Assembly: GCA_020696385.1 (NCBI GenBank)
Contig: JAEHCQ010000004.1
Span: 1 to 64,000 of the forward strand
Source of the DNA: Methanobacteriota archaeon
Lineage (GTDB): Archaea; Thermoplasmatota; Thermoplasmata; SG8-5; JAGLSY01
DNA length: 64,000 nt
Reading direction: 5' to 3'
The notes under the pieces are model-generated. The model worked only from the letters and a program-made list of their open reading frames with translations, made no database searches and was not told where the DNA came from. Both the position numbers and the translations under genes were made by a program. This document shows positions 15,675 through 35,768 of this stretch, piece after piece. Position 1 is the first letter of the stretch, and each line of letters opens with the position of its first letter.

Positions 15675-16793
15675 ATGAAAATATGCTATATTGGCAATGG
15701 AAGATCAATTCATACAATCAGATGGGTAAAGTGGTTTAAGGAACAGGGACATGACGTGCATTTGATCACACGTAAATGTGAATCGATCGAGGGAATATCG
15801 ATACATATTATCCAAATTGACAAGGGATTTTATATACCTCGTTTGAGATTAATCAGAGCAGTAAAGAAAATTATAAAGGATATCGAACCAGACATATTGC
15901 ATGCCCATCAAGCATTGGGATATGCAACGTATGGTGCATTATCTGGATTTCACCCATTTGTTGTAAGTGTTTGGGGAGGAGAAGTATTGAGAAAGACTCA
16001 AGGTTTTTTCATTAAGAAATTAATAACAAAATTCATATTTAAGAAGGCCGACATGATAACAACCACTGCCAAATTTTTGGGCAAGTATTTGGAAAAGGAA
16101 TATGGATTGCCAAAAGATAAAATTAAAAGGATTCCATGGGGAATAGACTTAGAGATTTTTCATTCTAAATACAGAGAAGAAGCAAAGAAACTTAGAGAAA
16201 ATTTGAAAATAAGAGACGATTCTTTAGTCATTATAAGCAATAGGCAATTGCGTCCTGAATATGAAATTCAAACCACAGTGGAGGCAATTCCATATGTTAC
16301 TGAAAAATACCCAGATTCAATATTTATATTCATAAAAAGTTTAAAAGGTTATGAAGACCTTGATTTTGAGAAATCAATGAAATCAAGAGTTAATGAATTG
16401 GGCGTGGCCAAGAACACCATATTTCTGACAAATGATATTTCGTCAGACGAAATGGCTATTTTTCTAAACATGTCTGATATATTTATTTCAATACCAAAAA
16501 CAGACCAGTTCAGTGCTAGTGTGATGGAAGGAATGGCATGCGGCCCTGCTCCAATTGTAAGTGATATAGATGTATATAAACAGTACTTGAAAGATTATTC
16601 CAATGCTTTGTTCGTTAATCCAGATAGCCCGAAAGAATTAGCAGATAAAATATTTTATTACGCAGAGAATGAACAACTAAAAGAGAATTATCATAAAATA
16701 AATAAAAAAATAATAGAGGAAAAAGAAAGTTGGGATATAAATGCAAAAAAGATGGAAAACTTGTATATAGATATTATAGGAGATATAACATGA
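15675..16793 (+). CDS. Glycosyltransferase family 4
   Basis: SIHTIRW, PDILHAH, SVMEGMACG. Confidence 0.88.
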   Translation: MKICYIGNGRSIHTIRWVKWFKEQGHDVHLITRKCESIEGISIHIIQIDKGFYIPRLRLIRAVKKIIKDIEPDILHAHQALGYATYGALSGFHPFVVSVWGGEVLRKTQGFFIKKLITKFIFKKADMITTTAKFLGKYLEKEYGLPKDKIKRIPWGIDLEIFHSKYREEAKKLRENLKIRDDSLVIISNRQLRPEYEIQTTVEAIPYVTEKYPDSIFIFIKSLKGYEDLDFEKSMKSRVNELGVAKNTIFLTNDISSDEMAIFLNMSDIFISIPKTDQFSASVMEGMACGPAPIVSDIDVYKQYLKDYSNALFVNPDSPKELADKIFYYAENEQLKENYHKINKKIIEEKESWDINAKKMENLYIDIIGDIT

Positions 16794-17932
16794 AATGGAA
16801 TATACCATTGTTTAAGATATTTTCAGATGAACAGGACTATGATCTAATTCATCAAGTTATCAAGAGAGGTTCATATTGGACTACCGGTCCAGAGGTTGAA
16901 AAGTTCGAGCAAGAGGTTGCAAAATATGTCGGTCTGAAATATGCTGTCTCATTCACTAATGGAACCGCAGCCCTACATGCAGCCATGTTGGCTTATGGAA
17001 TTGGAAAGGATGATGAAGTCATTGTTCCTTCGTTCACATTTATAAGTACAGCAAATGTCCCACTGTTTGTGGGCGCTAAGCCGGTTTTTGCAGAAATTGA
17101 TACTGAAACATATGGGCTAGACCCAGAGGATGTAGAAAAACGCATAACTTCCAAGACAAAAGCAATAATGCCAGTCCATGTTGGGGGAGCCCCATGTTTA
17201 ATAGAGGAATTGAAAGAAATTGCTGAAAAACATGATTTATTATTAATAGAAGATGCAGCTGAAGCATTTGGTGCGAAGGTTCATGGAAAAATGGTAGGTA
17301 CCCACGGAGACATCGCAATGTACAGTTTCTGTCAGAACAAAATAATCACAACTGGGGAAGGAGGCATGCTAGTCACAGATGACAAGGACATATACAATCA
17401 ACTTAAACTCCTCCGCTCACATGGGCGTGCAGATGATGCGGATTATTTTTCTAAATCAGAGACAAATGACTATATTTCGCTGGGCTACAATTTTAGAATG
17501 TCAAGTATAACCGCAGCACTTGGCCTTGCACAAATGAGCAAGGTTGATAAAATCATAGAAATGCGAAGGAATGTCGCTCAACAATACAACAAAAATCTGG
17601 GTGGCATTTCCCAAATAACATTACCAATTGAAAGGCCAGGTTGTTTCAATGTATATCAATTATACACCATAATGTTAGAAAGTCAAGAGATTAGAGATAA
17701 ATTAAAGTCAGCATTGACCAAAGATAAAATAATGACAAAGGTGTATTTTGATCCCATCCATCTCATGAAACACTATCAAAACATGGGATATACAATTGGT
17801 GAACTACCTCAAACAGAAGATATTGCAAAACGTGTTCTCACTCTTCCCTTGTATCCTGAAATGAATGAAGAAGAAGTATCATATGTAACTAAAAGTATCC
17901 GGAATCCCATAAACAAAATAAGTGAGGGTTAA
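16790..17932 (+). CDS. DegT/DnrJ/EryC1/StrS sugar aminotransferase
   Basis: NGTAALH, EDAAEA.G, SF..NKIITTGEGGM, GYNFRM. Confidence 0.95.
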   Translation: MKWNIPLFKIFSDEQDYDLIHQVIKRGSYWTTGPEVEKFEQEVAKYVGLKYAVSFTNGTAALHAAMLAYGIGKDDEVIVPSFTFISTANVPLFVGAKPVFAEIDTETYGLDPEDVEKRITSKTKAIMPVHVGGAPCLIEELKEIAEKHDLLLIEDAAEAFGAKVHGKMVGTHGDIAMYSFCQNKIITTGEGGMLVTDDKDIYNQLKLLRSHGRADDADYFSKSETNDYISLGYNFRMSSITAALGLAQMSKVDKIIEMRRNVAQQYNKNLGGISQITLPIERPGCFNVYQLYTIMLESQEIRDKLKSALTKDKIMTKVYFDPIHLMKHYQNMGYTIGELPQTEDIAKRVLTLPLYPEMNEEEVSYVTKSIRNPINKISEG

Positions 17933-17934
17933 AA

Positions 17935-18963
17935 ATGACTTCAATTATTGGAAAAAATGTATTGGTGACTGGCGGAACTGGCTCAATAGGCGGAGCCATA
18001 GTTCGTAATGCTTTGGCAAATGGTGCCAATAAGGTAATAATGTTCAGTAGAGATGAAATAAAGCAATTTCTTACTAAGCAACGCATTTCAGACCCAAAGC
18101 TGATTTCTTTTGTCGGGGACATAAGAGATTTGGAAAGCATAAGAAAGGTATTCGAGGAACACCATATAGATATTGTATTTCATGCCGCTGCAATGAAACA
18201 TTTAGTTGTATGTGAAGATGAGCCAGCTGAATGTGTTAAAACCAATCTCATAGGAACTGATAACCTTATACGTTTATGTAAGCAATACAAGGTGGAGCAT
18301 GTTATTGGAATAAGCACAGATAAAGCGTCTTCACCAGCAAATGTTATGGGCGCTTCCAAATACATAGCAGAAAGAATGATTCTAAATGCAGTAAAAACAG
18401 GAGATGGAATTTATTCATGTGTCAGATTTGGCAATGTAGCTAATTCACGAGGTTCTGTAATCCCATTAATGGTCAGGCGAATACTTGATGGAAAGTATAT
18501 TTGGGTATCAGATCCAAATGTAACCAGGTTCATTATGCGGATAGATGATGCTGTGGAACTTGTAATGAAAACCCTGGAAATTGCACATGGTGGAGAGCTA
18601 TACATCCTGAAGATGAAGGCTTTCAAGCTGGGAGATCTTGGAGAAGTGATGAAAGAACGTATCGGACCAAAAATGGTTAAAAAACCAGTTGAACTAAAAT
18701 ATACTGAATTGGTTCGTGGAGAAAAACTCCATGAAGAACTTCTTAATGAGATGGATTGCATAAATCTATATGAAAACGAGGAAATGTATCTTATAGCTCC
18801 TAATACAAAAAGCATGAAAGATGTAATTCAAGATTATCCTAGCTTTAAAAAATCAGCAACAGAAACATACACATCTGAAAATACAGAAATGATGTCAAAA
18901 GATCAATTAGAAACCATAGCTCTTGAGTATCTAAAGGACGAATTTGGATTTATTGGAGAATAA
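17935..18963 (+). CDS. UDP-GlcNAc 4,6-dehydratase-like SDR (CapD/PglF/CapE type, soluble)
   Basis: GGTGSIG, HAAAMKH, STDKA, MGASK, RFGNV..SRGSV, GEKLHEEL. Confidence 0.9.
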   Translation: MTSIIGKNVLVTGGTGSIGGAIVRNALANGANKVIMFSRDEIKQFLTKQRISDPKLISFVGDIRDLESIRKVFEEHHIDIVFHAAAMKHLVVCEDEPAECVKTNLIGTDNLIRLCKQYKVEHVIGISTDKASSPANVMGASKYIAERMILNAVKTGDGIYSCVRFGNVANSRGSVIPLMVRRILDGKYIWVSDPNVTRFIMRIDDAVELVMKTLEIAHGGELYILKMKAFKLGDLGEVMKERIGPKMVKKPVELKYTELVRGEKLHEELLNEMDCINLYENEEMYLIAPNTKSMKDVIQDYPSFKKSATETYTSENTEMMSKDQLETIALEYLKDEFGFIGE

Positions 18964-18976
18964 AAATGGCAGTTAG

Positions 18977-19045
18977 ATGAGGAAAAATCGTTACAGTAGG
19001 TGTAGATGCCTTGGACCAGAAGTTCTAGGAACATTCAAAAACGAC
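18977..19045 (+). pseudogene. Possible frameshifted 5' remnant of an alkaline-phosphatase-superfamily gene
   Basis: Across two frameshifts reads MRK/IVTVGVDALD/PEVLGTFKND, like the KVxVIGxDALDP N-terminus of that family. Confidence 0.3.
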
Positions 19046-19071
19046 AATAAATTGATAATGACTTTCCACAC

Positions 19072-19881
19072 TCATATAGAATTTTCATACTCTTTTATTT
19101 CTTCTTCAGTAAGGTTCCGTATAACTCTGGCGGGGCTGCCGTAAGCAAGGGAATGTTTCGGGATGTTCTTGGTCACTACAGAGGCCGCTCCAATTAAAGA
19201 ATACTTGCCGACAGTGACATCTGGCAAGATCATACTGTTGATACCAACTCTTACAAAATCTTCAATAGTAGGTCCCGATAAGTCATCTTTCACATTGCGA
19301 TTCATATTTTTGTTATCTGATAATATACTATGAGCTCCTAAGAACACACCATTGCCTATTCTCGATGCTTGACCAATATCACAATTTTGATGTATCTGCG
19401 AATTTTTTCCAACAATGCAGTATCCGTCAATAACAGCACCAGTTCCTATTAAGCAATTATCTCCCAAAGTAGTATGCTCTCTTATCAATACATGATGGCC
19501 AGTGATCAATCTCCCAGCGATCACATTGGAATATATTATAGAATGAGATCTAACTATCGATCCCTTTCCTATAATTGTTTTAGGTTCGTGAACAATGAAT
19601 TTCTCTATTCTGCTTGAATTGTATGAATCATCTCCACCCAAGGTCAATTTGGTCGCATGACCCAGTGTTACATACGAGCCTATTCTCGCATTCTCCATAA
19701 TGACCACGCCTGGTAAGATAGTGGTGTAATCCTGAATAACCACATCATTACCTATTTTTGTTTCCTGATTCTCTGTACCATGGATCAGGCAGTAATTTCC
19801 TATTGTGACATTGTTCGATATGGTAACATTGCCCTTTATAATTGTTCCTTCACCTATTTCAGCATTTATTTCTTGGTTCAT
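19072..19881 (-). CDS. Hexapeptide-repeat (left-handed beta-helix) N-acetyltransferase
   Basis: Extended I-G-x-x-x-x repeats, IGAASVVTKNIP...YGSPA. Confidence 0.88.
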   Translation of the reverse strand: MNQEINAEIGEGTIIKGNVTISNNVTIGNYCLIHGTENQETKIGNDVVIQDYTTILPGVVIMENARIGSYVTLGHATKLTLGGDDSYNSSRIEKFIVHEPKTIIGKGSIVRSHSIIYSNVIAGRLITGHHVLIREHTTLGDNCLIGTGAVIDGYCIVGKNSQIHQNCDIGQASRIGNGVFLGAHSILSDNKNMNRNVKDDLSGPTIEDFVRVGINSMILPDVTVGKYSLIGAASVVTKNIPKHSLAYGSPARVIRNLTEEEIKEYENSI

Positions 19882-20120
19882 AATATTCTCTCTCCTCTCC
19901 AATAGTATATAATTATATTAATGCTTTCGGACTCCTCAGGTGTTCTGAATCTGTCATGTCTAAAAGGAAACATTTAAAATCCAGGTATATATCCAAAGGG
20001 ATGATGCCGGTCAAGGGAGATCAAGTGGATATTGTAGAGTCAGTACAGGTTGATTCAAAGGCTGATATTAATGCTTCGCACACTATACTGGATCATTTTA
20101 GGAAATTGGAGAGATAACAT

Positions 20121-20771
20121 ATGGCAATCTTATTTAAATCAATGAATCTTTTTGTAAAAGCTTATTTGTTTTTGAAAAGGAAAATGTTAATGTCAAATAT
20201 AAAAAAGGTAGGTGAAAATTTTTTATTCGACCCTAGATCTGATATTATAACTCCGCAGCATTTAGAAATTGGCGATAATGTATTTATTGGAAATAATGCT
20301 TATATTTCAGCTGAAGTATCTATTGGTAACAATGTCATAACAGGTCCGTCATTAACAATTATAGGTGGCAATCATTATTTTGCCGTGAAAGGGAAATATC
20401 ATAGGTTTCTACACCCTAAGGATAGAGAAAATGCAAAGAAAATCAATATAGAAGATGATGTTTGGCTCGGGGCAAATGTAACACTGCTCAATGGTGTTAC
20501 CGTTGGTGTAGGAAGTGTGATCGGAGCCTGTTCTGTTGTTGTAAAATCATTACCGCCATTTACCGTTTGTGTAGGGAATATATGCAAGCCAATAAAAAAA
20601 ATATTCTCAGATGAAGATCTTAAAGAACATTTACAAATATTAGGATTTAAACGGGATCACATTGATAAGCTTATTGACAGAAGAAACTTGGAGTTAACAA
20701 CTTGGGGCATTCAAAATATAAAGAGTGTGAATTACACAAATAATTATTGGGAAACTCTAGAAGAGAAATGA
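20121..20771 (+). CDS. Hexapeptide-repeat O-acyltransferase
   Basis: IGDNVFIG, GGNH, IEDDVWLGANV..GV.VG.GSVIGA.SVV. Confidence 0.88.
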   Translation: MAILFKSMNLFVKAYLFLKRKMLMSNIKKVGENFLFDPRSDIITPQHLEIGDNVFIGNNAYISAEVSIGNNVITGPSLTIIGGNHYFAVKGKYHRFLHPKDRENAKKINIEDDVWLGANVTLLNGVTVGVGSVIGACSVVVKSLPPFTVCVGNICKPIKKIFSDEDLKEHLQILGFKRDHIDKLIDRRNLELTTWGIQNIKSVNYTNNYWETLEEK

Positions 20772-20833
20772 ATTTGTCACTATCGTTCTTAGCTTAGCAA
20801 TACCACCTTATATGTTATTACAAAAACCATATC

Positions 20834-22432
20834 TCACTCAGTTGAAAATATATTTATAGCCTCTAGGATCATCATAATGTCCTTTCTTTTCAATTCTTTC
20901 AATATCCATAATATTCCGGAATAGATACCAATACCGACAAAAGCAAAGATTATCAGATGGTACCATCTTGTGGCAAAATCCTGCGTGTTGATAAAATGAA
21001 GAACCAATCCCATCAAAGTAGCCGATATGATATGTATTATCATTCGTGGTTGGATTATTCTATTTTTTATTATTTTTTTGGATGCTGCCCTGAGCATGAG
21101 ATACATGACCAAAACCGAGATTAGCCCAGCCAAAGCCGCACCATTATGCCCCACTATATTATAGTTGCTCAGGAGTCCGTTTTTTGGAATCAGAAGAATG
21201 TTCAATCCAATATTTACCAGAGCACCAATAACCATAAATTTCGCATAGTGTTTTGGCCGATTCATGCCAACAATTACAGAGGTATAAGGTATATTTAAAG
21301 AACTGATAAAAGCAAACACTGTAAGAATTCGCAAGGTATTTGTTGCAGGTTCAAAGGAATTACTTAGGACAATTACGATTATTTCATGGCTGAAAACAAT
21401 AATATAAGCAACCAAAGGAAGCAGGAAAAGAGACAGGTATCGGTCTGCTTTTCTTGTTATACGTCCTATCTCTTTCAGGTTCTTTTTTATATGCAATGAT
21501 GAAATGGTGGGAAATAAAAGCACACCTACTGCAGTTGAGAACATTAGTAGACTGGTGGATATTCTTTGTACCGCGAAATAATACCCCACTTCTCTGGCAG
21601 CCCAGAAAAATCCCAACATTAGTTTATCAATATTCCATGTTATTAATGCAAAAGCAGAAACGACCATCATTGGTAATGCAAAGACAAGATAGCTTTTTGC
21701 ATATTCTTTACTTGGTCTTTTTATTGGATATTTTCTGAACATTATCAATGCTAAAATGAAAGCAATTGAAGTTCCCAATAAATATGTGGTGGCCAGTGCG
21801 CCTATTGCATGATTGGCCAGGAATGTTTGAAATGGCAGGAGAAACTCGGGCCAGGGATATTTAGGAGATATGAATACCCCGCTGTCAAGACTGTTGATGC
21901 CCACATACGCACCGGAAACACCGGCAAGTGCCACACCGATCATTAATAAGACACGGGTTATTGTTTCCGTGAGGGAGGATATCTGGCTCTTTACAATGTC
22001 CTTTTTTGCATTGAAGGTATAAATGGGAATTTGGGAAAGGCTTAGAACCACATAAAATGCCAAGAATATGTAAATAACACTTTCCTTGGTAGAATCATAA
22101 AATCCATTATGCAGTACATATTTCCATATGAAAATACTACCAACTACGACTAACACTAATATCCCAGTAAGGATCAATTTTATAGTCAAATAGGTCCCGA
22201 TACAAGTGCCCAGGTCTTTTCCCTCTGATACTTTCTTTATGTGTGCGTTTCCAAAACCCAGATCGGAAATGAAAGAGAATGTGCCCACAAAGGCCATGCT
22301 GAAGCTGATCACTCCAAGTGCCTCGGTTGCGAAGTCCCCCCATAGTCTTGCTATGATAAAAAGCACTAATAAACCCATAATTGAGCATATTCCATTTGAT
22401 GCCATGATTATAAATGATTTTTTGGCAATCAT
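20834..22432 (-). CDS. Oligosaccharide flippase (Wzx/AglR-like, MOP superfamily)
   Basis: 12-14 TM helices, DLGF..AH.K, IDKLMLG, VGYY.A.QRI, N.LLIP, GAALA; ends the glycan locus. Confidence 0.88.
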   Translation of the reverse strand: MIAKKSFIIMASNGICSIMGLLVLFIIARLWGDFATEALGVISFSMAFVGTFSFISDLGFGNAHIKKVSEGKDLGTCIGTYLTIKLILTGILVLVVVGSIFIWKYVLHNGFYDSTKESVIYIFLAFYVVLSLSQIPIYTFNAKKDIVKSQISSLTETITRVLLMIGVALAGVSGAYVGINSLDSGVFISPKYPWPEFLLPFQTFLANHAIGALATTYLLGTSIAFILALIMFRKYPIKRPSKEYAKSYLVFALPMMVVSAFALITWNIDKLMLGFFWAAREVGYYFAVQRISTSLLMFSTAVGVLLFPTISSLHIKKNLKEIGRITRKADRYLSLFLLPLVAYIIVFSHEIIVIVLSNSFEPATNTLRILTVFAFISSLNIPYTSVIVGMNRPKHYAKFMVIGALVNIGLNILLIPKNGLLSNYNIVGHNGAALAGLISVLVMYLMLRAASKKIIKNRIIQPRMIIHIISATLMGLVLHFINTQDFATRWYHLIIFAFVGIGIYSGILWILKELKRKDIMMILEAINIFSTE

Positions 22433-30758: not shown

Positions 30759-31718
30759 TTAATTCTGCCACGTTTCCAATTCCCTCTCGATCATCTTCAG
30801 GTCCTTCTCATCAAGTGTCAAAGGACTTAGAGGAACTATCAGGATAGAATCCCTGATAGCGATCTGCTCATTGAGAAGTTGAACGAATTTCAGAACGGAC
30901 TGGTAGGAGTTATGGGATATCAGATATTCCATTCCAGAGAGAATTATGATGCCGTTCTCGCTCTTCTTCAGGAAATTCTCTATCTGGTAGAAAAGTGCAG
31001 ATAGATTCTGTGGAGCCACCGTGTTCTCGGTATCCGATGTCGATAGCCAGATGATCGGCGTCTTCTGAAGATCGAACTTCTTTCTTACTTTCGCGGGGAA
31101 GTCCCTGGTTATGCACAATCCTTGATGGCCGTGCGTGACATAATCCTTGAATATCTTGTATGAAATATCAGGAGCTTCTTCCTTTACCAGGTAGCTTGTC
31201 GCGGTCTCCAGCTCGTATTCCAGGTCCGATTGCTCCACGCTCTCAGCCTCTGGCTTGATATCCTGGCTGCTCAATGTGAGCTTGTGCGTGCAAAGTTCAT
31301 CACCCTTGCATATGCATGTTTCCTCCACGCATTCGTAGATCTTATTGAAAAGGGTTGAAACAACACCTGCAAGATAACCTCTGGTGAAATTACAACTGGG
31401 TACATCCCCCTTGCCCATTGCATTAGCCTCTACAGAATCTTCAAATTCTATAATGATCTGGTCTCCAATCAATTTAAGTGATCTTGTTCTCCCCAGGCCA
31501 GTCTCGATCATTATTCCAGGCATCGTCTCCTGGAATTCATCGAGATCCTCACATTCGAATCCAATGCTGCGGACAAGTCCTTCTCCGCATCTGAATCCGT
31601 ACCTTTCCATTGTTTCTTTGGATGGATCCTCACCAAGGATTATCTGAAGCTCATCGCTCAGACTCTTCAAAGCATCTCCAGGAATGACGAAGAAGCTGAC
31701 AGTTCCATCATCATCCAT
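30759..31718 (-). CDS. V4R domain + DUF835 (inactive KaiC-like) protein
   Basis: CNFTRGYLAG and VEETCICKGDELC V4R motifs; C-terminal GLCITR.FP, IWLS, G.EYLISHN. Confidence 0.85.
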   Translation of the reverse strand: MDDDGTVSFFVIPGDALKSLSDELQIILGEDPSKETMERYGFRCGEGLVRSIGFECEDLDEFQETMPGIMIETGLGRTRSLKLIGDQIIIEFEDSVEANAMGKGDVPSCNFTRGYLAGVVSTLFNKIYECVEETCICKGDELCTHKLTLSSQDIKPEAESVEQSDLEYELETATSYLVKEEAPDISYKIFKDYVTHGHQGLCITRDFPAKVRKKFDLQKTPIIWLSTSDTENTVAPQNLSALFYQIENFLKKSENGIIILSGMEYLISHNSYQSVLKFVQLLNEQIAIRDSILIVPLSPLTLDEKDLKMIERELETWQN

Positions 31719-32258
31719 TCAAGCACCTCCTTTCAGGAAGGAAGTTATGACCTCATTTCCAAGCTCGAGGAAGGATTCCTCCACATCTGCACCTGTTTTC
31801 GCACTGGTCAGATGATATGATAAATTGAATTTGTCAGCCACTGCCTTGATCTGCGCATCGGCTGGCCCCTTGTCATCCAGGAGATCGGATTTATTTCCAA
31901 GGAGTACGATCGGGGCGGCGTCATTAACACCTCTGAAAACACTGATCCAGTCTTCGAGCTTGTCCATTGTTTCCTTTCTGGTGACATCGCAGACTATGAA
32001 GGCCGCCGCAGCGCCCTTATAATACGTCGAATGAAGGTTATTGTGAACTCTCTGGCCAAGTATATCCCAGATAAGGAATGTGAGAAAGAACTCATCCTCT
32101 GGCCTATTGATGACGACCTGTTTTTTGGATACTTTTGTACCGAATGTCTTTATGTATTTATCATCGAATGAGTCATCCACGAATTTCTTGATCAAACTGG
32201 TTTTACCGACGGCTCCGTCGCCTAATAAACATATCTTCTTCATCAACTTCTTAGCCAT
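31719..32258 (-). CDS. Rab-like small GTPase (Ras superfamily), stand-alone
   Basis: G1 GDGAVGKT, G2 YIKTFG, G3 WDILGQ, G4 NKSD, G5 SAK; start ATG 32258 after GGGTGA. Confidence 0.9.
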   Translation of the reverse strand: MAKKLMKKICLLGDGAVGKTSLIKKFVDDSFDDKYIKTFGTKVSKKQVVINRPEDEFFLTFLIWDILGQRVHNNLHSTYYKGAAAAFIVCDVTRKETMDKLEDWISVFRGVNDAAPIVLLGNKSDLLDDKGPADAQIKAVADKFNLSYHLTSAKTGADVEESFLELGNEVITSFLKGGA

Positions 32259-32263
32259 TACAA

Positions 32264-33085
32264 TCACCCATATTGTTCGATCATTCTCTTCCTCTTGGCC
32301 AAATGTGATTTGACCGTGAACTCGTCCTTGAAGCCCATTTCCACCTGAGCCAGATTTTCCACTGCCTGGATCAGGTTCTCCTTTACAGGGCCTTTTACAT
32401 CCAGTCCCGCCCTTGAGAATTGTTGCCTCACCATGGCCATCGCGGTGTCCCTGTCCCCGAATGATTCGCAGAACTCATTGATTATCACATCAGTGACATC
32501 CACAAGGTTCTTGATCTCCTTCTTTGTCACTGTTTGTGATTGTGAGCTTTCCATGGCCTGGTCTGAGATTATGGATATGCCGAGGGCCTCGAACATCTCC
32601 TCGACATTCTCTCCGGTCTTCGCACTGCTGAGGAAATATTTGGTATCATATTTGTCAGCCAGCTCTTGAAGATCATCATTCGTGATCTGCCTCTGATCTA
32701 CCAGATCGGCCTTGTTCCCGACAAAGGTCAAAGGTATGTCCTCGCGCACCTTCCTAACCTCCGGTATCCAATAATCTTCCAGGCTGGCAAGGGTCTCTTT
32801 CCTTGTGAGGTCGCATACCATCAGAGCACCTTCTCCACCTTTGTAGCTGGTGGATTGGATGGATGTGTAACCCTTCTGCCCAAGGATATCCCATATCATG
32901 AGTGTGAGGTCGACCTTTTCATCACCATGTTCGAGGCTGAGAACCTTCTTCGTGACCTTTGTTCCAATGGTGGTGATGTACTTGTCATCGAACTTATCCA
33001 TCACGTATTTGTGGATAAGACTGGTCTTACCGACAGCCCCATCTCCAAGCATGAGTACTTTTCTCTTTACACGACGAACATCCAT
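32264..33085 (-). CDS. Rab-like small GTPase with about 90-aa C-terminal helical extension
   Basis: G1 GDGAVGKT, YITTIG, WDILGQ, NKAD, SAKTGENV. Confidence 0.9.
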   Translation of the reverse strand: MDVRRVKRKVLMLGDGAVGKTSLIHKYVMDKFDDKYITTIGTKVTKKVLSLEHGDEKVDLTLMIWDILGQKGYTSIQSTSYKGGEGALMVCDLTRKETLASLEDYWIPEVRKVREDIPLTFVGNKADLVDQRQITNDDLQELADKYDTKYFLSSAKTGENVEEMFEALGISIISDQAMESSQSQTVTKKEIKNLVDVTDVIINEFCESFGDRDTAMAMVRQQFSRAGLDVKGPVKENLIQAVENLAQVEMGFKDEFTVKSHLAKRKRMIEQYG

Positions 33086-33241
33086 ACTATTTCCTCAACC
33101 AATTGAGGGATTCACAAGACAAAAGCCTTGGAAGCCCTTATTGAATTCAATCCAAGCCAAGCTTGGAGATAATCCAATAATGAAACTACATGGCACTTAC
33201 CATAGATATAGATTACTAATAATTTTAAATCAATTTGAAAA

Positions 33242-34084
33242 TCATTTCAACTCAGCAATATACTCTTCCAATCCAGTTCCTGATCTTTTAAGGATCTTCT
33301 TCAATTCCTTCGACACCCCTGTCCCGTACTGCATGGCCTTCTTCGGCCTTTGCGCTATCGGGGAGGGAACTCCAATATCCTCTGCCAGATGCCTCAGCAC
33401 TTTCTTGTTCTGATCCTCATCTATCTTATGAATGAAAGGTATGGTCTTGCCATATTCGATGATCGCTGGATCAAGGTACGGAAGAATCAGCTTCTTGCCA
33501 AAATACCCTGCCATCTTGTGGTAAAAGGAAGCCTCGCTCTCGATTATTTCCATGATGTCCCGATCCATCATGGCCTGTGCTTCCTTCTCATCAACTTCCC
33601 TGTATTTCCTGTATCCGCCAAAGACCTCGTCAGCTCCCTGGCCCAATATCAGGGTTCTTTCCTCCACCTGGCTAAGTATGAGATAAAAAGGAATGAAGAC
33701 AGCCATCCATTTTGGATTGTCCATTCCGATATCATGGACAATGTGCTTGATCGCCATTTCAACATCTTCCACATCGATCTTCACTTGCTCTATATACAGC
33801 CCCATAAGGTCTGCAGCTTCTTTCGACCAGTTGAGATCGTTCGATCCCTTGAACCCGATGGAATATAATTTCGGGGTGAAGAATTCCTTCGATACAATAT
33901 GAGCCAGCAAAGCGCTATCCAGACCACCGGAGAAAAGAACAGCGGTCTTCTTTTGGTGGTCCTGATCATGATGATTATAGCGACGATCATCGCCCAGCTC
34001 TTTTTCAAGATGACCCAGAATAAGTCGATGTGTGTCATCAATATTCTTCTGAAGATCTGGATCTTTTGTCAAGGTATCAACCAA
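33242..34084 (-). CDS. Asparagine synthase C-terminal (synthetase)-domain protein lacking the glutaminase domain
   Basis: FSGGLDS, GQGADEVFGGY, RPKKAMQYGTG; start uncertain (TTG 34084 overlapping glyS stop). Confidence 0.8.
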   Translation of the reverse strand: MVDTLTKDPDLQKNIDDTHRLILGHLEKELGDDRRYNHHDQDHQKKTAVLFSGGLDSALLAHIVSKEFFTPKLYSIGFKGSNDLNWSKEAADLMGLYIEQVKIDVEDVEMAIKHIVHDIGMDNPKWMAVFIPFYLILSQVEERTLILGQGADEVFGGYRKYREVDEKEAQAMMDRDIMEIIESEASFYHKMAGYFGKKLILPYLDPAIIEYGKTIPFIHKIDEDQNKKVLRHLAEDIGVPSPIAQRPKKAMQYGTGVSKELKKILKRSGTGLEEYIAELK

Positions 34085-35768
34085 TGGCTTCGAAGGCCAG
34101 TGAGGAATCCGCAAGAGATATGGCTATCCTCTCCAGGTCATCCATCTTCACCCTTTTCTGGTCTTTCGTATCCCTGTCTCTGATCGTGACGCAGCCATCT
34201 TCCTTTGTCTCATAATCCACGGTTATGCAGAACGGTGTTCCAGCCTCGTCCATTCTGGCATACCTTCTGCCAATGGTTCCGCTGCCGTCATAGTAGGTCA
34301 ATAATCCTTTCTGCCTCAGTTTCTTGTCGATATCAGAGGCCATGTCATCCAGGCCATCTTTCGACATGAGCGGGAACACACCGAATTTGATCGGTGCTAT
34401 GGTGACTGGCAGACCAAGTGTCACGTACTCTCCATCTTCCTTGTAATTGTGATCCATCACGGTGTAGAAGATACGATCCAGTCCGTATGAAGGCTCGATG
34501 ACATGGGGTACGATCCTCTTGCCGCTGACCTTCTTCTTCTCCTGTGATATGGTGAAACATTCTGGAGGTATGGATACTTCTTCCCCATCCATGTCCAGAA
34601 CAATCGGTATGGCGGTATCGAGGCCATCACAAGGCATCTCACTAAGCTTTGTGGCTATGGCTCCTGCCTTGCCCTTGAACAATGGGCCAAGGGCGCTCAG
34701 ATTGGGCACTATGATCGTGGCCTCCATCTCTATGGGCTCAGGGAATCTGATGAATGCTGTCAGCTCCGCGCCAGATTCATCAATGTGGCTCTGAAGGTCA
34801 TAACAACCTCGATCAGCTATGCCGACCAACTCCAGCCAACCATAGCCAGTCATTGCCTCGCAATCCCAGCAATCCTCGGCATAATGCGCCATCTCGGTCT
34901 TCAGATGCTGTCTGAATCTCAGCTTCTTCGAGTCCAGACCTGCAGAGGTAAGAATATGCTGAGTAAGGTGCATGAAGTAGGCCAGTGGTTCATTGGCAAT
35001 GATGCCTTTGTCCACTGCATCTCTCAGGGTGATGTCTTGTTCATCGGCACCGTCGGGCAATAATCTGAGTGTCTTGCTAGACACTTCGTCAAAGCCAGGC
35101 CAGACCTTGTTGCTGGGGTCGAAGAAGACCTCGGCCTCCATCATATTGAATTCTCTGACTCTTGTGATGCTCTGCCTCGGAGAGATCTCATTCCTGAAAC
35201 CTTTACCAAGTTGAACTATTCCAAAAGGTAGTTTTTCACGGTTGAATTTGTAAAGCAAATGGAAATTGAAGAACATGGCTTGCGCGGTCTCCGGCCTCAT
35301 GTAACCGTCCCTTCCGCCAATGGGTCCGACCATTGTCTTGAACATAAGATTGACAGATACTGGCTCTGATAATCCGCCTTTGCAGGATGGACATTTGATC
35401 CCATGCTTCACCATGGCCTCTTGAAGTTCATCCTGGCTCATTGCATCTGGATTATCCTCCACCTCCTCTAGAAGATGATCCGCCCTGAAGGCCTGATTGC
35501 ATTTCTGGCATTGGACTGAGAAATCCGTGAATTCTGAGAGGTGGCCGCTTGCCCTGAACACATCCTCAGGTGAGATAATGGGTGAGAATATTTCGGACAT
35601 TCCTTCTCTCATAACATAATTATTTCGCCATAGACTTTCAATATTGGTCTTCATGGTCGATCCCAGAGGGCCGTAATCGTACAGTCCGGCCATACCGCCG
35701 TATATCTCGAAGGATGGGAAGAAGAAACCTCGCCTCTTTGCAAGCCCAAGAATGATGTTTGGATCCAT
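34077..35768 (-). CDS. glyS: Glycine--tRNA ligase (archaeal/eukaryotic type)
   Basis: RRGF, YDYGPLG, RPETAQ, FRNEISPRQ, EMAHYA, PHVIEPS.G.DR, IGRRYAR.DE.GTP. Confidence 0.97.
   Translation of the reverse strand: MDPNIILGLAKRRGFFFPSFEIYGGMAGLYDYGPLGSTMKTNIESLWRNNYVMREGMSEIFSPIISPEDVFRASGHLSEFTDFSVQCQKCNQAFRADHLLEEVEDNPDAMSQDELQEAMVKHGIKCPSCKGGLSEPVSVNLMFKTMVGPIGGRDGYMRPETAQAMFFNFHLLYKFNREKLPFGIVQLGKGFRNEISPRQSITRVREFNMMEAEVFFDPSNKVWPGFDEVSSKTLRLLPDGADEQDITLRDAVDKGIIANEPLAYFMHLTQHILTSAGLDSKKLRFRQHLKTEMAHYAEDCWDCEAMTGYGWLELVGIADRGCYDLQSHIDESGAELTAFIRFPEPIEMEATIIVPNLSALGPLFKGKAGAIATKLSEMPCDGLDTAIPIVLDMDGEEVSIPPECFTISQEKKKVSGKRIVPHVIEPSYGLDRIFYTVMDHNYKEDGEYVTLGLPVTIAPIKFGVFPLMSKDGLDDMASDIDKKLRQKGLLTYYDGSGTIGRRYARMDEAGTPFCITVDYETKEDGCVTIRDRDTKDQKRVKMDDLERIAISLADSSLAFEAIG

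Follow-up and report, generated by a model that had tools for sequence, protein, structure and literature searches.

Small GTPases and their cognate regulators form the basic logic of eukaryotic membrane traffic, and the origin of this logic is usually discussed for Asgard archaea only. In MK-D1, the GTPase genes generally do not share operons with genes for roadblock, longin or TRAPPC3, according to the accessible part of Tran et al. (2024), and because such operons are missing, the partners of these GTPases cannot be read from the genome. A 64,000-nucleotide (nt) stretch of archaeal DNA, hereafter the window (contig JAEHCQ010000004.1 of GenBank assembly GCA_020696385.1), raises the question whether such partners can be recognized elsewhere. 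It comes from the metagenome-assembled genome (MAG) of a Thermoplasmata archaeon, and thus from a non-Asgard host, as an earlier reading based on the letters alone (the sequence-only reading) had supposed. The window carries a cassette of two Rab-like small GTPase genes, one long (GA) and one short (GB), followed by a gene for a protein that joins a V4R domain to a DUF835 domain. We find that this module is real and conserved, and that it is probably new. In Thermoplasmatota the partner is readable from the genome, with a Rab-like GTPase and a V4R/Bet3-fold protein occurring together in 20 family-level groups.

The evidence for this lies in gene neighbourhoods. The V4R-DUF835 protein was used as a query in 60 relatives, which yielded 29 loci besides its own. 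A Rab-like GTPase gene lies directly upstream in 27 of them, two of which are cut by contig ends. One of the two other loci (L051) has no GTPase gene, and a longer flank (L069) agrees; the second (L060) encodes a DUF835 protein only, not V4R. The full arrangement GA-GB-V4R.DUF835 is kept within the taxonomic order of the window. More distant families keep GB-V4R.DUF835 with stop and start overlapping or abutting, among unrelated neighbours that vary by lineage (ABC transporter, AIR-synthase-like protein, transketolase, Hef helicase, PKD surface protein). Unexpected support for V4R itself as the GTPase partner came from standalone V4R genes, defined as 144–189 amino acids (aa) long with no DUF835 within 1.5 kb. 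At 16 of 20 such loci a Rab-like GTPase gene lies directly upstream on the same strand, and several genomes contain two or three paralogous pairs of this kind. Other classes of the phylum show the pairing in 19 of 20 distinct regions, the last being uninformative at a contig start. The forms seen there are G-V4R.DUF835, G-V4R.DUF835-V4R, G-V4R.DUF835-G-V4R and V4R.DUF835-G. The linkage to V4R that the sequence-only reading depended on is thus conserved. It is also far above chance, since there are just 10 GTPase genes of this kind in the 2.28-Mb genome of the window; with 1 to at least 22 GTPases per genome, a chance GTPase neighbour would be expected at well under 1% of genes.

The pairing recurs with standalone V4R, and Ras+DUF835 fusions and a KaiC-GTPase-GTPase cassette (described below) also exist. 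From these gene arrangements we conclude that what is conserved at the core is the pairing of a short Rab-like GTPase with a V4R protein bearing a putative zinc (Zn) site, to which DUF835 and the long GTPase were added in particular lineages. The three-gene module that was first proposed stands as a compact and conserved GTPase/V4R-DUF835 unit, but its three-gene form is one variant among a wider family of cassettes.

Shared transcription could in principle account for the pairing, with an operon that serves a common condition and products that neither touch nor signal to each other. Conservation at the level of the order is indeed embedded in a larger syntenic block, with Asn-synthase-like and Gly-tRNA ligase genes upstream and genes for a phosphoribosyltransferase (PRTase)-like regulator and a Lys-tRNA ligase downstream. 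Yet the pairing outlasts complete turnover of these flanks, spans all the family-level groups mentioned above, and has undergone several duplications as a unit within single genomes; fusions of Ras and DUF835 domains exist as well. We regard co-regulation alone as quite improbable, and a functional partnership between GTPase and V4R as likely.

In the window, the three open reading frames (ORFs) are tightly packed on the minus strand (Table 1), just as the sequence-only reading had described. The GTG start of GB is overlapped by the stop codon of GA. Most orthologues of GB start at the ATG corresponding to position 32258, and with that start the GA stop lies 5 nt upstream. The ATG of the V4R-DUF835 gene directly follows the TGA of GB, and GGAGGTG is found just 5′ of that ATG. 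The upstream spacer is, from its composition, likely the promoter region of the cassette; the gene downstream of the cassette has a TATA-like stretch of its own. Profile matches identify housekeeping genes on either side, namely an Asn-synthase-like protein and Gly-tRNA ligase upstream, and a PRTase-like protein of GfcR/PyrE type and class I Lys-tRNA ligase downstream. The Asn-synthase-like/DUF7411 gene (33242–34114, minus strand) adjoins the cassette, and the same upstream neighbour is seen in a distant family (genome G027, L062:4619-5413) that lacks GA.

Table 1. Coordinates of the cassette features within the window.
Feature	Position	Strand	Basis
GA, long Rab-like small GTPase, 273 aa	32264..33085	-	ORF and Pfam Ras
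GB, short Rab-like small GTPase, 182 aa	31719..32267	-	ORF and Pfam Ras; possible true ATG at 32258
V4R-DUF835 protein, 319 aa	30759..31718	-	ORF, Pfam, model with predicted local distance difference test (pLDDT) 86.5
GA G domain, residues 1-177, G1-G5 motifs, catalytic Gln70	32555..33085	-	AlphaFold model and aligned rows
GA C-terminal four-helix domain, residues 194-272, without Pfam family	32270..32506	-	AlphaFold model
V4R/Bet3-fold sensor domain, about residues 11-150, Cys109-Glu132-Cys135-Cys143 site	31269..31688	-	Foldseek, MopR alignment
DUF835 domain, residues 184-314, KaiC/RecA-like fold without P-loop	30777..31169	-	Pfam, Foldseek
Upstream spacer, 156 nt, A/T-rich, with TATA-like stretch	33086..33241	-	Sequence reading

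What kind of GTPases are GA and GB? The Pfam Ras model scores 138 bits for GA (2.2e-40) and 121 bits for GB (5.3e-35) against a cut-off of 21.6 bits, the Roc model stays below Ras in both proteins (93–103 vs 121–138 bits), and Arf lies far lower. GDGAVGKT, T-I/F-G, WDILGQ, NKxD and SAKTG can be read directly in both sequences, so that all five motifs G1 to G5 are intact and both proteins are small GTPases of the Ras superfamily (PF00071). All 34 aligned rows of the GA family and all 25 of GB keep the Gln of DxxGQ, and G14, K20, T21, D66, G69, Q70, N124, K125, D127, S154 and A155 are invariant columns in the 34 GA rows. Neither protein has a C-terminal Cys for prenylation, GA ending in ...KRMIEQYG and GB in ...SFLKGGA. 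Complete motifs with a catalytic Gln and the lack of prenylation cysteines had both been claimed in the sequence-only reading, and both are borne out.

The solved relative closest to GA in sequence is the Thorarchaeota (Thor) Rab 7ezb (3.5e-32), with Rabs next, and those closest to GB are Rab22A (4.4e-28) and the same Thor Rab. Among 760 solved relatives of GA and 351 of GB, the best 60 in each case are Rabs, Ypt/Sec4 and 7ezb, joined by RalA in the case of GA. An AlphaFold model of GA (pLDDT 84) has Thor Rab, Ypt7, Rab27B and Rab8 as its top Foldseek matches. The relatives of GA include a protein of "Candidatus Proteinoplasmatales archaeon SG8-5" with 60% identity. RabF motifs, for example YYRGA, are said to have been defined by Pereira-Leal and Seabra in 2000. 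GB and all 21 V4R-linked GTPases that were scored have Y-[YF]-x-G in switch II, at the RabF4 position, where GA has SYKGG; the other RabF motifs are matched only in part. At this position Y-[YF]-x-G is absent from 8 of the 10 own-genome paralogues and present in GB and in a paralogue on contig C50 that adjoins no V4R gene. A tree built from 22 G domains of Thermoplasmatota separates the short V4R-linked GTPases from the long GA-type ones, with a Shimodaira-Hasegawa-like approximate likelihood ratio test (SH-aLRT) value of 88 on an unstarred branch. The short side also holds the unlinked C50 paralogue, and deep support in the tree is weak. The term "Rab-like" is accordingly used for GA and GB as a statement of best match, not as a placement in a clade. 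Trees with labelled eukaryotic or Asgard references were inconclusive in the accessible part of Surkont & Pereira-Leal (2016).

Two other GTPase families were considered and rejected on motifs and architecture, as the sequence-only reading required. G3 is WDILGQ in GA and GB, compared to TVPGQ or GTPGQ without the Asp in the MglA family (PMC4316618, seen in part), and the Roadblock genes of the genome are unlinked. Roc (Roc-COR) proteins are not matched either: no COR match was obtained, Roc scores are below those of Ras, the C-terminus of GA is a four-helix domain of ∼85 aa, and GB is a bare G domain. The MglA-MglB system is nevertheless similar in plan, being a module of two genes, for a small GTPase of the Ras superfamily and for an adjacent small alpha/beta regulator, and a prokaryotic polarity or signalling switch (PMC4316618, same part). 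It differs in G3 and in the partner, which here has the V4R/Bet3 fold, not that of Roadblock. No Roadblock/MglB gene adjoins the cassette, as stated early on; the genome's two Robl_LC7 matches are both on contig C11, at 18.5 kb and 371 kb, and the GTPase gene nearest to them (C11, 50.9 kb) is ∼32 kb away.

Archaeal Rab-like or Rup GTPases and the Thor Rab 7ezb are similar as single-domain proteins with eukaryote-like G1 to G5 and no lipidation site. The description of Rup (single domain, at most 240 aa, eukaryote-like G motifs, no coupling to MglB) fits GB, whereas GA exceeds 240 aa. In the accessible text of Wuichet & Sogaard-Andersen (2014), archaeal Rup proteins are without conserved neighbours and proteins of more than 240 aa were set aside, which would have left out GA-type proteins. 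The accessible text of Surkont & Pereira-Leal (2016) gives one Rab-like protein each in a Thermoplasmatales archaeon and in Aciduliprofundum. The system described here is unlike archaeal Rup in its 10 copies per genome, its conserved partner and its long form with a new C-terminal domain. The literature searched contained no description of a GTPase-V4R operon and no functional description of such a module, in agreement with the sequence-only reading; the neighbourhood tables and lists of Wuichet 2014, Surkont 2016 and Makarova 2017 could list one.

The partner protein has two parts. Pfam recognizes V4R (PF02830) at residues 89-147, with 44.3 bits against a cut-off of 31 bits (1.9e-11), and DUF835 (PF05763) at residues 184-314, with 121 bits against 33.1 (3.7e-35). 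The family comprises 149 clusters at E≤1e-20, and both domains are present in most of the 120 clusters listed. In Foldseek searches the N-terminal half of the model matches the sensor domains of DmpR, PoxR and MopR (5e-8 to 2.6e-7), followed by Bet3/TRAPPC3 (from 1.3e-6, target TM-score (TMt) 0.62-0.72), the V4R protein MJ1460 of M. jannaschii and Thor TRAPPC3. For the C-terminal half, the match is to the KaiC-like FlaH (4yds, 6.5e-5). Cys109, Glu132, Cys135 and Cys143 align with residues 155, 178, 181 and 189 of MopR, in an alignment that spans MopR 136-190, and we take these MopR residues to be Zn ligands. Of 29 aligned rows of GTPase-linked V4R proteins, 28 retain the Cys/Glu-ligand site pointed out in the sequence-only reading; the remaining row is a mis-called ORF. 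DUF835 had been regarded as an inactivated KaiC-like domain, and a sequence scan agrees with the FlaH match in finding no GK[ST] P-loop anywhere in the protein. This fits the iKaiC label under which DUF835 is listed in the accessible part of Galperin 2018 (PMC5847659).

Previous work gives some indication of what such domains do. V4R has been treated as an input domain for small hydrophobic ligands (Podar 2008, seen in part), PoxR, MopR and DmpR are phenol sensors according to the titles of their solved structures, and in the V4R domain of MsvR cysteines mediate redox-dependent behaviour, as far as the accessible part of that literature goes. PoxR/MopR/DmpR and MsvR share with the V4R domain of the cassette the sensor fold and the Cys-Glu-Cys-Cys spacing, while V4R-DUF835 has no AAA+ or helix-turn-helix (HTH) output domain. 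An identity as an MsvR transcription factor was rejected: the NCBIfam match reaches 40.2 bits (2.9e-10) over the V4R part only, against a cut-off of 220 bits, and there is no HTH. The accessible part of Galperin 2018 names DUF835, placed behind REC or PAS, among the output domains that archaeal response regulators use (REC-DUF835). The DUF835 output proteins of that source (PMC5847659), from Methanomicrobia and Thermoplasmata, have in common with the protein described here an N-terminal input domain fused to DUF835; they differ in the input domain, which here is V4R, and in the coupling of the gene described here to small GTPases.

How might these parts work together? KaiC signalling hubs of archaea were reportedly proposed by Makarova in 2017 (in mBio). 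We suggest that the cassette represents one form of a phylum-wide signalling module of archaea in which V4R is the ligand-gated regulator of GB, wired to KaiC-type hubs, and we put the chance that this reading is right at about even. The V4R domain would sense redox conditions or a ligand that is small and hydrophobic and, as a cognate ligand-gated regulator, would set or read the nucleotide state of GB, in a role comparable to that of MglB for MglA or of longin/Bet3-type platforms for eukaryotic GTPases. The fused, catalytically dead KaiC-like DUF835 would pass this state on to KaiC-type hubs. GA may be a second switch, a paralogous GTPase with its own four-helix domain that was recruited in some lineages. 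The simplest wiring for all the cassettes would lead from V4R (sensor) via the GTPase (switch) to a KaiC-like domain (output), with sensor and output sharing one chain in the cassette of the window. Such a module would tie small GTPases in a concrete way to the KaiC signalling hubs proposed for archaea. We infer that the proteins bind one another, in which direction the signal runs, what kind of ligand is sensed and what the output in the cell is, and likewise a biochemical role of V4R as guanine nucleotide exchange factor (GEF), GTPase-activating protein (GAP) or effector.

Several points weigh against this model. No GTPase gene adjoins V4R at 4 of the 20 standalone loci and at one V4R-DUF835 locus (L051/L069, genome G037), and six further V4R matches in the genome of the window all lie away from GTPase genes. 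The related genomes are non-independent samples, and the region is wholly syntenic within the window's own order. Placing V4R upstream of the GTPase follows the logic of domain order only. Bet3 in TRAPP is one part of a multi-subunit exchange factor, and we know of no V4R protein that acts as a GEF alone. A predicted complex of GB, GTP and Mg with V4R-DUF835 scored 0.02 against a mark of 0.32; it was run without controls and weighs neither way on binding.

The GTPases are also connected to KaiC-like proteins outside the three-gene unit. Ras and DUF835 are found on one chain in 8 of 48 long relatives of GB in the search table, and both domains were above cut-off in the three that were re-scanned. 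A search for full-length Ras+DUF835 fusions in 301 genomes of the phylum, with P0250 as the query, returned G-domain matches only. The genome of the window has a second cassette (C11:48190-52300), which encodes a TPR/zinc-ribbon protein of 611 aa, a KaiC-like protein of 240 aa with the unusual P-loop GEPGTMKS, a short GTPase of 178 aa and a long GTPase of 270 aa. At least one GTPase gene follows the KaiC gene at 16 of 17 loci within the order; behind the more distant KaiC matches, 12 in number and probably paralogues, there is none. The KaiC connection drawn in the sequence-only reading is thus also present outside the three-gene unit, in fusions and in a KaiC-GTPase-GTPase cassette.

These links can also be read differently. 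The GTPase would then be switched by another, unlinked cue, GB-GTP would bind DUF835 or V4R and thereby gate the KaiC hub or ligand binding, and V4R would leave the nucleotide cycle unaffected. The fusions have the G domain N-terminal to DUF835, which is the usual order from input to output, a KaiC-like gene adjoins the GTPase pair of the second cassette, and DUF835 is the output domain of REC-DUF835 proteins, all as this alternative would have it. It fits less well with the most widespread and minimal form of the pair, a G domain protein with a standalone V4R and without a KaiC-like domain, and V4R domains are known as ligand-sensing inputs. We think that V4R as a downstream effector is rather unlikely, and prefer it as a ligand-gated regulator of GB.

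A comparison with Rab and TRAPP suggests itself. Homology of V4R and Bet3 was proposed by Podar (2008, seen in part). GA and GB match Rabs best in sequence, GA also in fold, and V4R matches Bet3/TRAPPC3 at the TMt values given above. In contrast to the eukaryotic system, GA and GB lack prenylation cysteines, the neighbourhood yielded no folds of other TRAPP subunits, and the V4R domain is slightly closer to the bacterial phenol-sensor domains, whose metal site it keeps. Its likeness to Bet3/TRAPPC3, which belongs to a TRAPP core with subunits of Bet5, Trs23 and Trs31 type that acts as the GEF for Ypt1/Rab1, is one of fold only. A far-reaching possibility is that partnership between Rab-type GTPases and Bet3-fold proteins predates eukaryotes and extends beyond Asgard archaea, with a V4R dimer that would serve throughout Thermoplasmatota as the ligand-gated nucleotide-exchange platform of its cognate Rab-like GTPase, a minimal ancestor or analogue of TRAPP-Rab1 wired to KaiC hubs, not membranes. 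We consider this unlikely. The pair does, in any case, offer two small and soluble proteins with which possible control of a Rab-like switch by a protein of Bet3 fold can be tested directly.

One protein of a Promethearchaeota MAG (P0275, 324 aa) has a Ras domain at residues 7-168 followed by an ATC-hydrolase-like domain, which scores 26.7 bits, just under the cut-off of 28.1. The ATC-hydrolase-like fold is related to V4R in the accessible part of Galperin 2018. Judged by domain content, P0275 may be a fused Asgard counterpart of the G-V4R pair.

The pairing gives a first functional handle on a large and unstudied expansion of GTPases in Thermoplasmatota. Of 151 genomes sampled from the class, 106 have Rab-like GTPases, with 1 to at least 22 copies each; at least 22 copies are reached in the 3–5 Mb genomes of one family (f6), and no copies were found in the small-genome families f9 (0/16), f20 (0/12) and f21 (0/2). 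An expansion of this size, the frequent fusion of the GTPases to TPR repeats, and a 2026 preprint that, in its accessible part, proposes V4R as a ligand sensor in predicted immune systems might suggest a conflict or defence system, in which the GTPases with their V4R, TPR and KaiC-like partners would sense viruses or mobile elements. PADLOC has no family for V4R-DUF835, GB or the KaiC-like protein, and finds for GA a weak match of CARF type (1.9e-4). Moreover, the cassette lies among housekeeping genes and is inherited along with them, and no nuclease, TIR or pore effector adjoins it. We regard a role in defence as very improbable, and a signalling module with V4R as regulator as the better description.

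GA differs from GB by its C-terminal extension. In the AlphaFold model, residues 178-188 form a disordered linker between the G domain and four helices (194-209, 212-225, 235-249 and 255-272) with pLDDT mostly 84-97. D199, F205 and P233 are invariant in 34 aligned rows, and the last helix is basic. Pfam searches with this domain gave chance-level matches down to E=10 (best 0.012), and the ESM Atlas search gave no usable match. It matches four ORFs of the same genome, all of them long GTPases, and has 96 matches in a library of representatives at 50% identity, mostly at or near the protein C-terminus, with a few repeat-type outliers. On the strength of the model and these matches, we describe it as a new, conserved and unannotated predicted domain.

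Other architectures were seen among the relatives of these proteins. Ras+TPR fusions of ∼335–350 aa make up ∼17 of the 48 long GB relatives (P0241-P0263), one of them labelled as coming from an Omnitrophica bacterium. Further own-genome paralogues are located at C49:34179-36003, C33:166608-170088 and C50:8749-10046. TPR genes flank two of the genome's GTPase paralogues; among the paralogues are two 300-aa forms that lie in tandem behind three genes without a Pfam family and differ in their C-terminal extension from the other GTPases, one GTPase beside two TPR proteins, and one beside an HTH/MarR-like protein. A small gene kept behind the cassette in one family (L063:6072-6533) has a weak match to the zinc-ribbon family DUF5817 and no longin or roadblock signal.

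Elsewhere in the window, ARAGORN identified no tRNA genes across the entire 64 kb. A glycan-biosynthesis cluster at 15675-22432 stands out by its low GC content (0.35-0.37 vs ∼0.45) and encodes a GT4 glycosyltransferase, a DegT aminotransferase, a Polysacc_synt_2 dehydratase/epimerase, two hexapeptide acyltransferases and a flippase.

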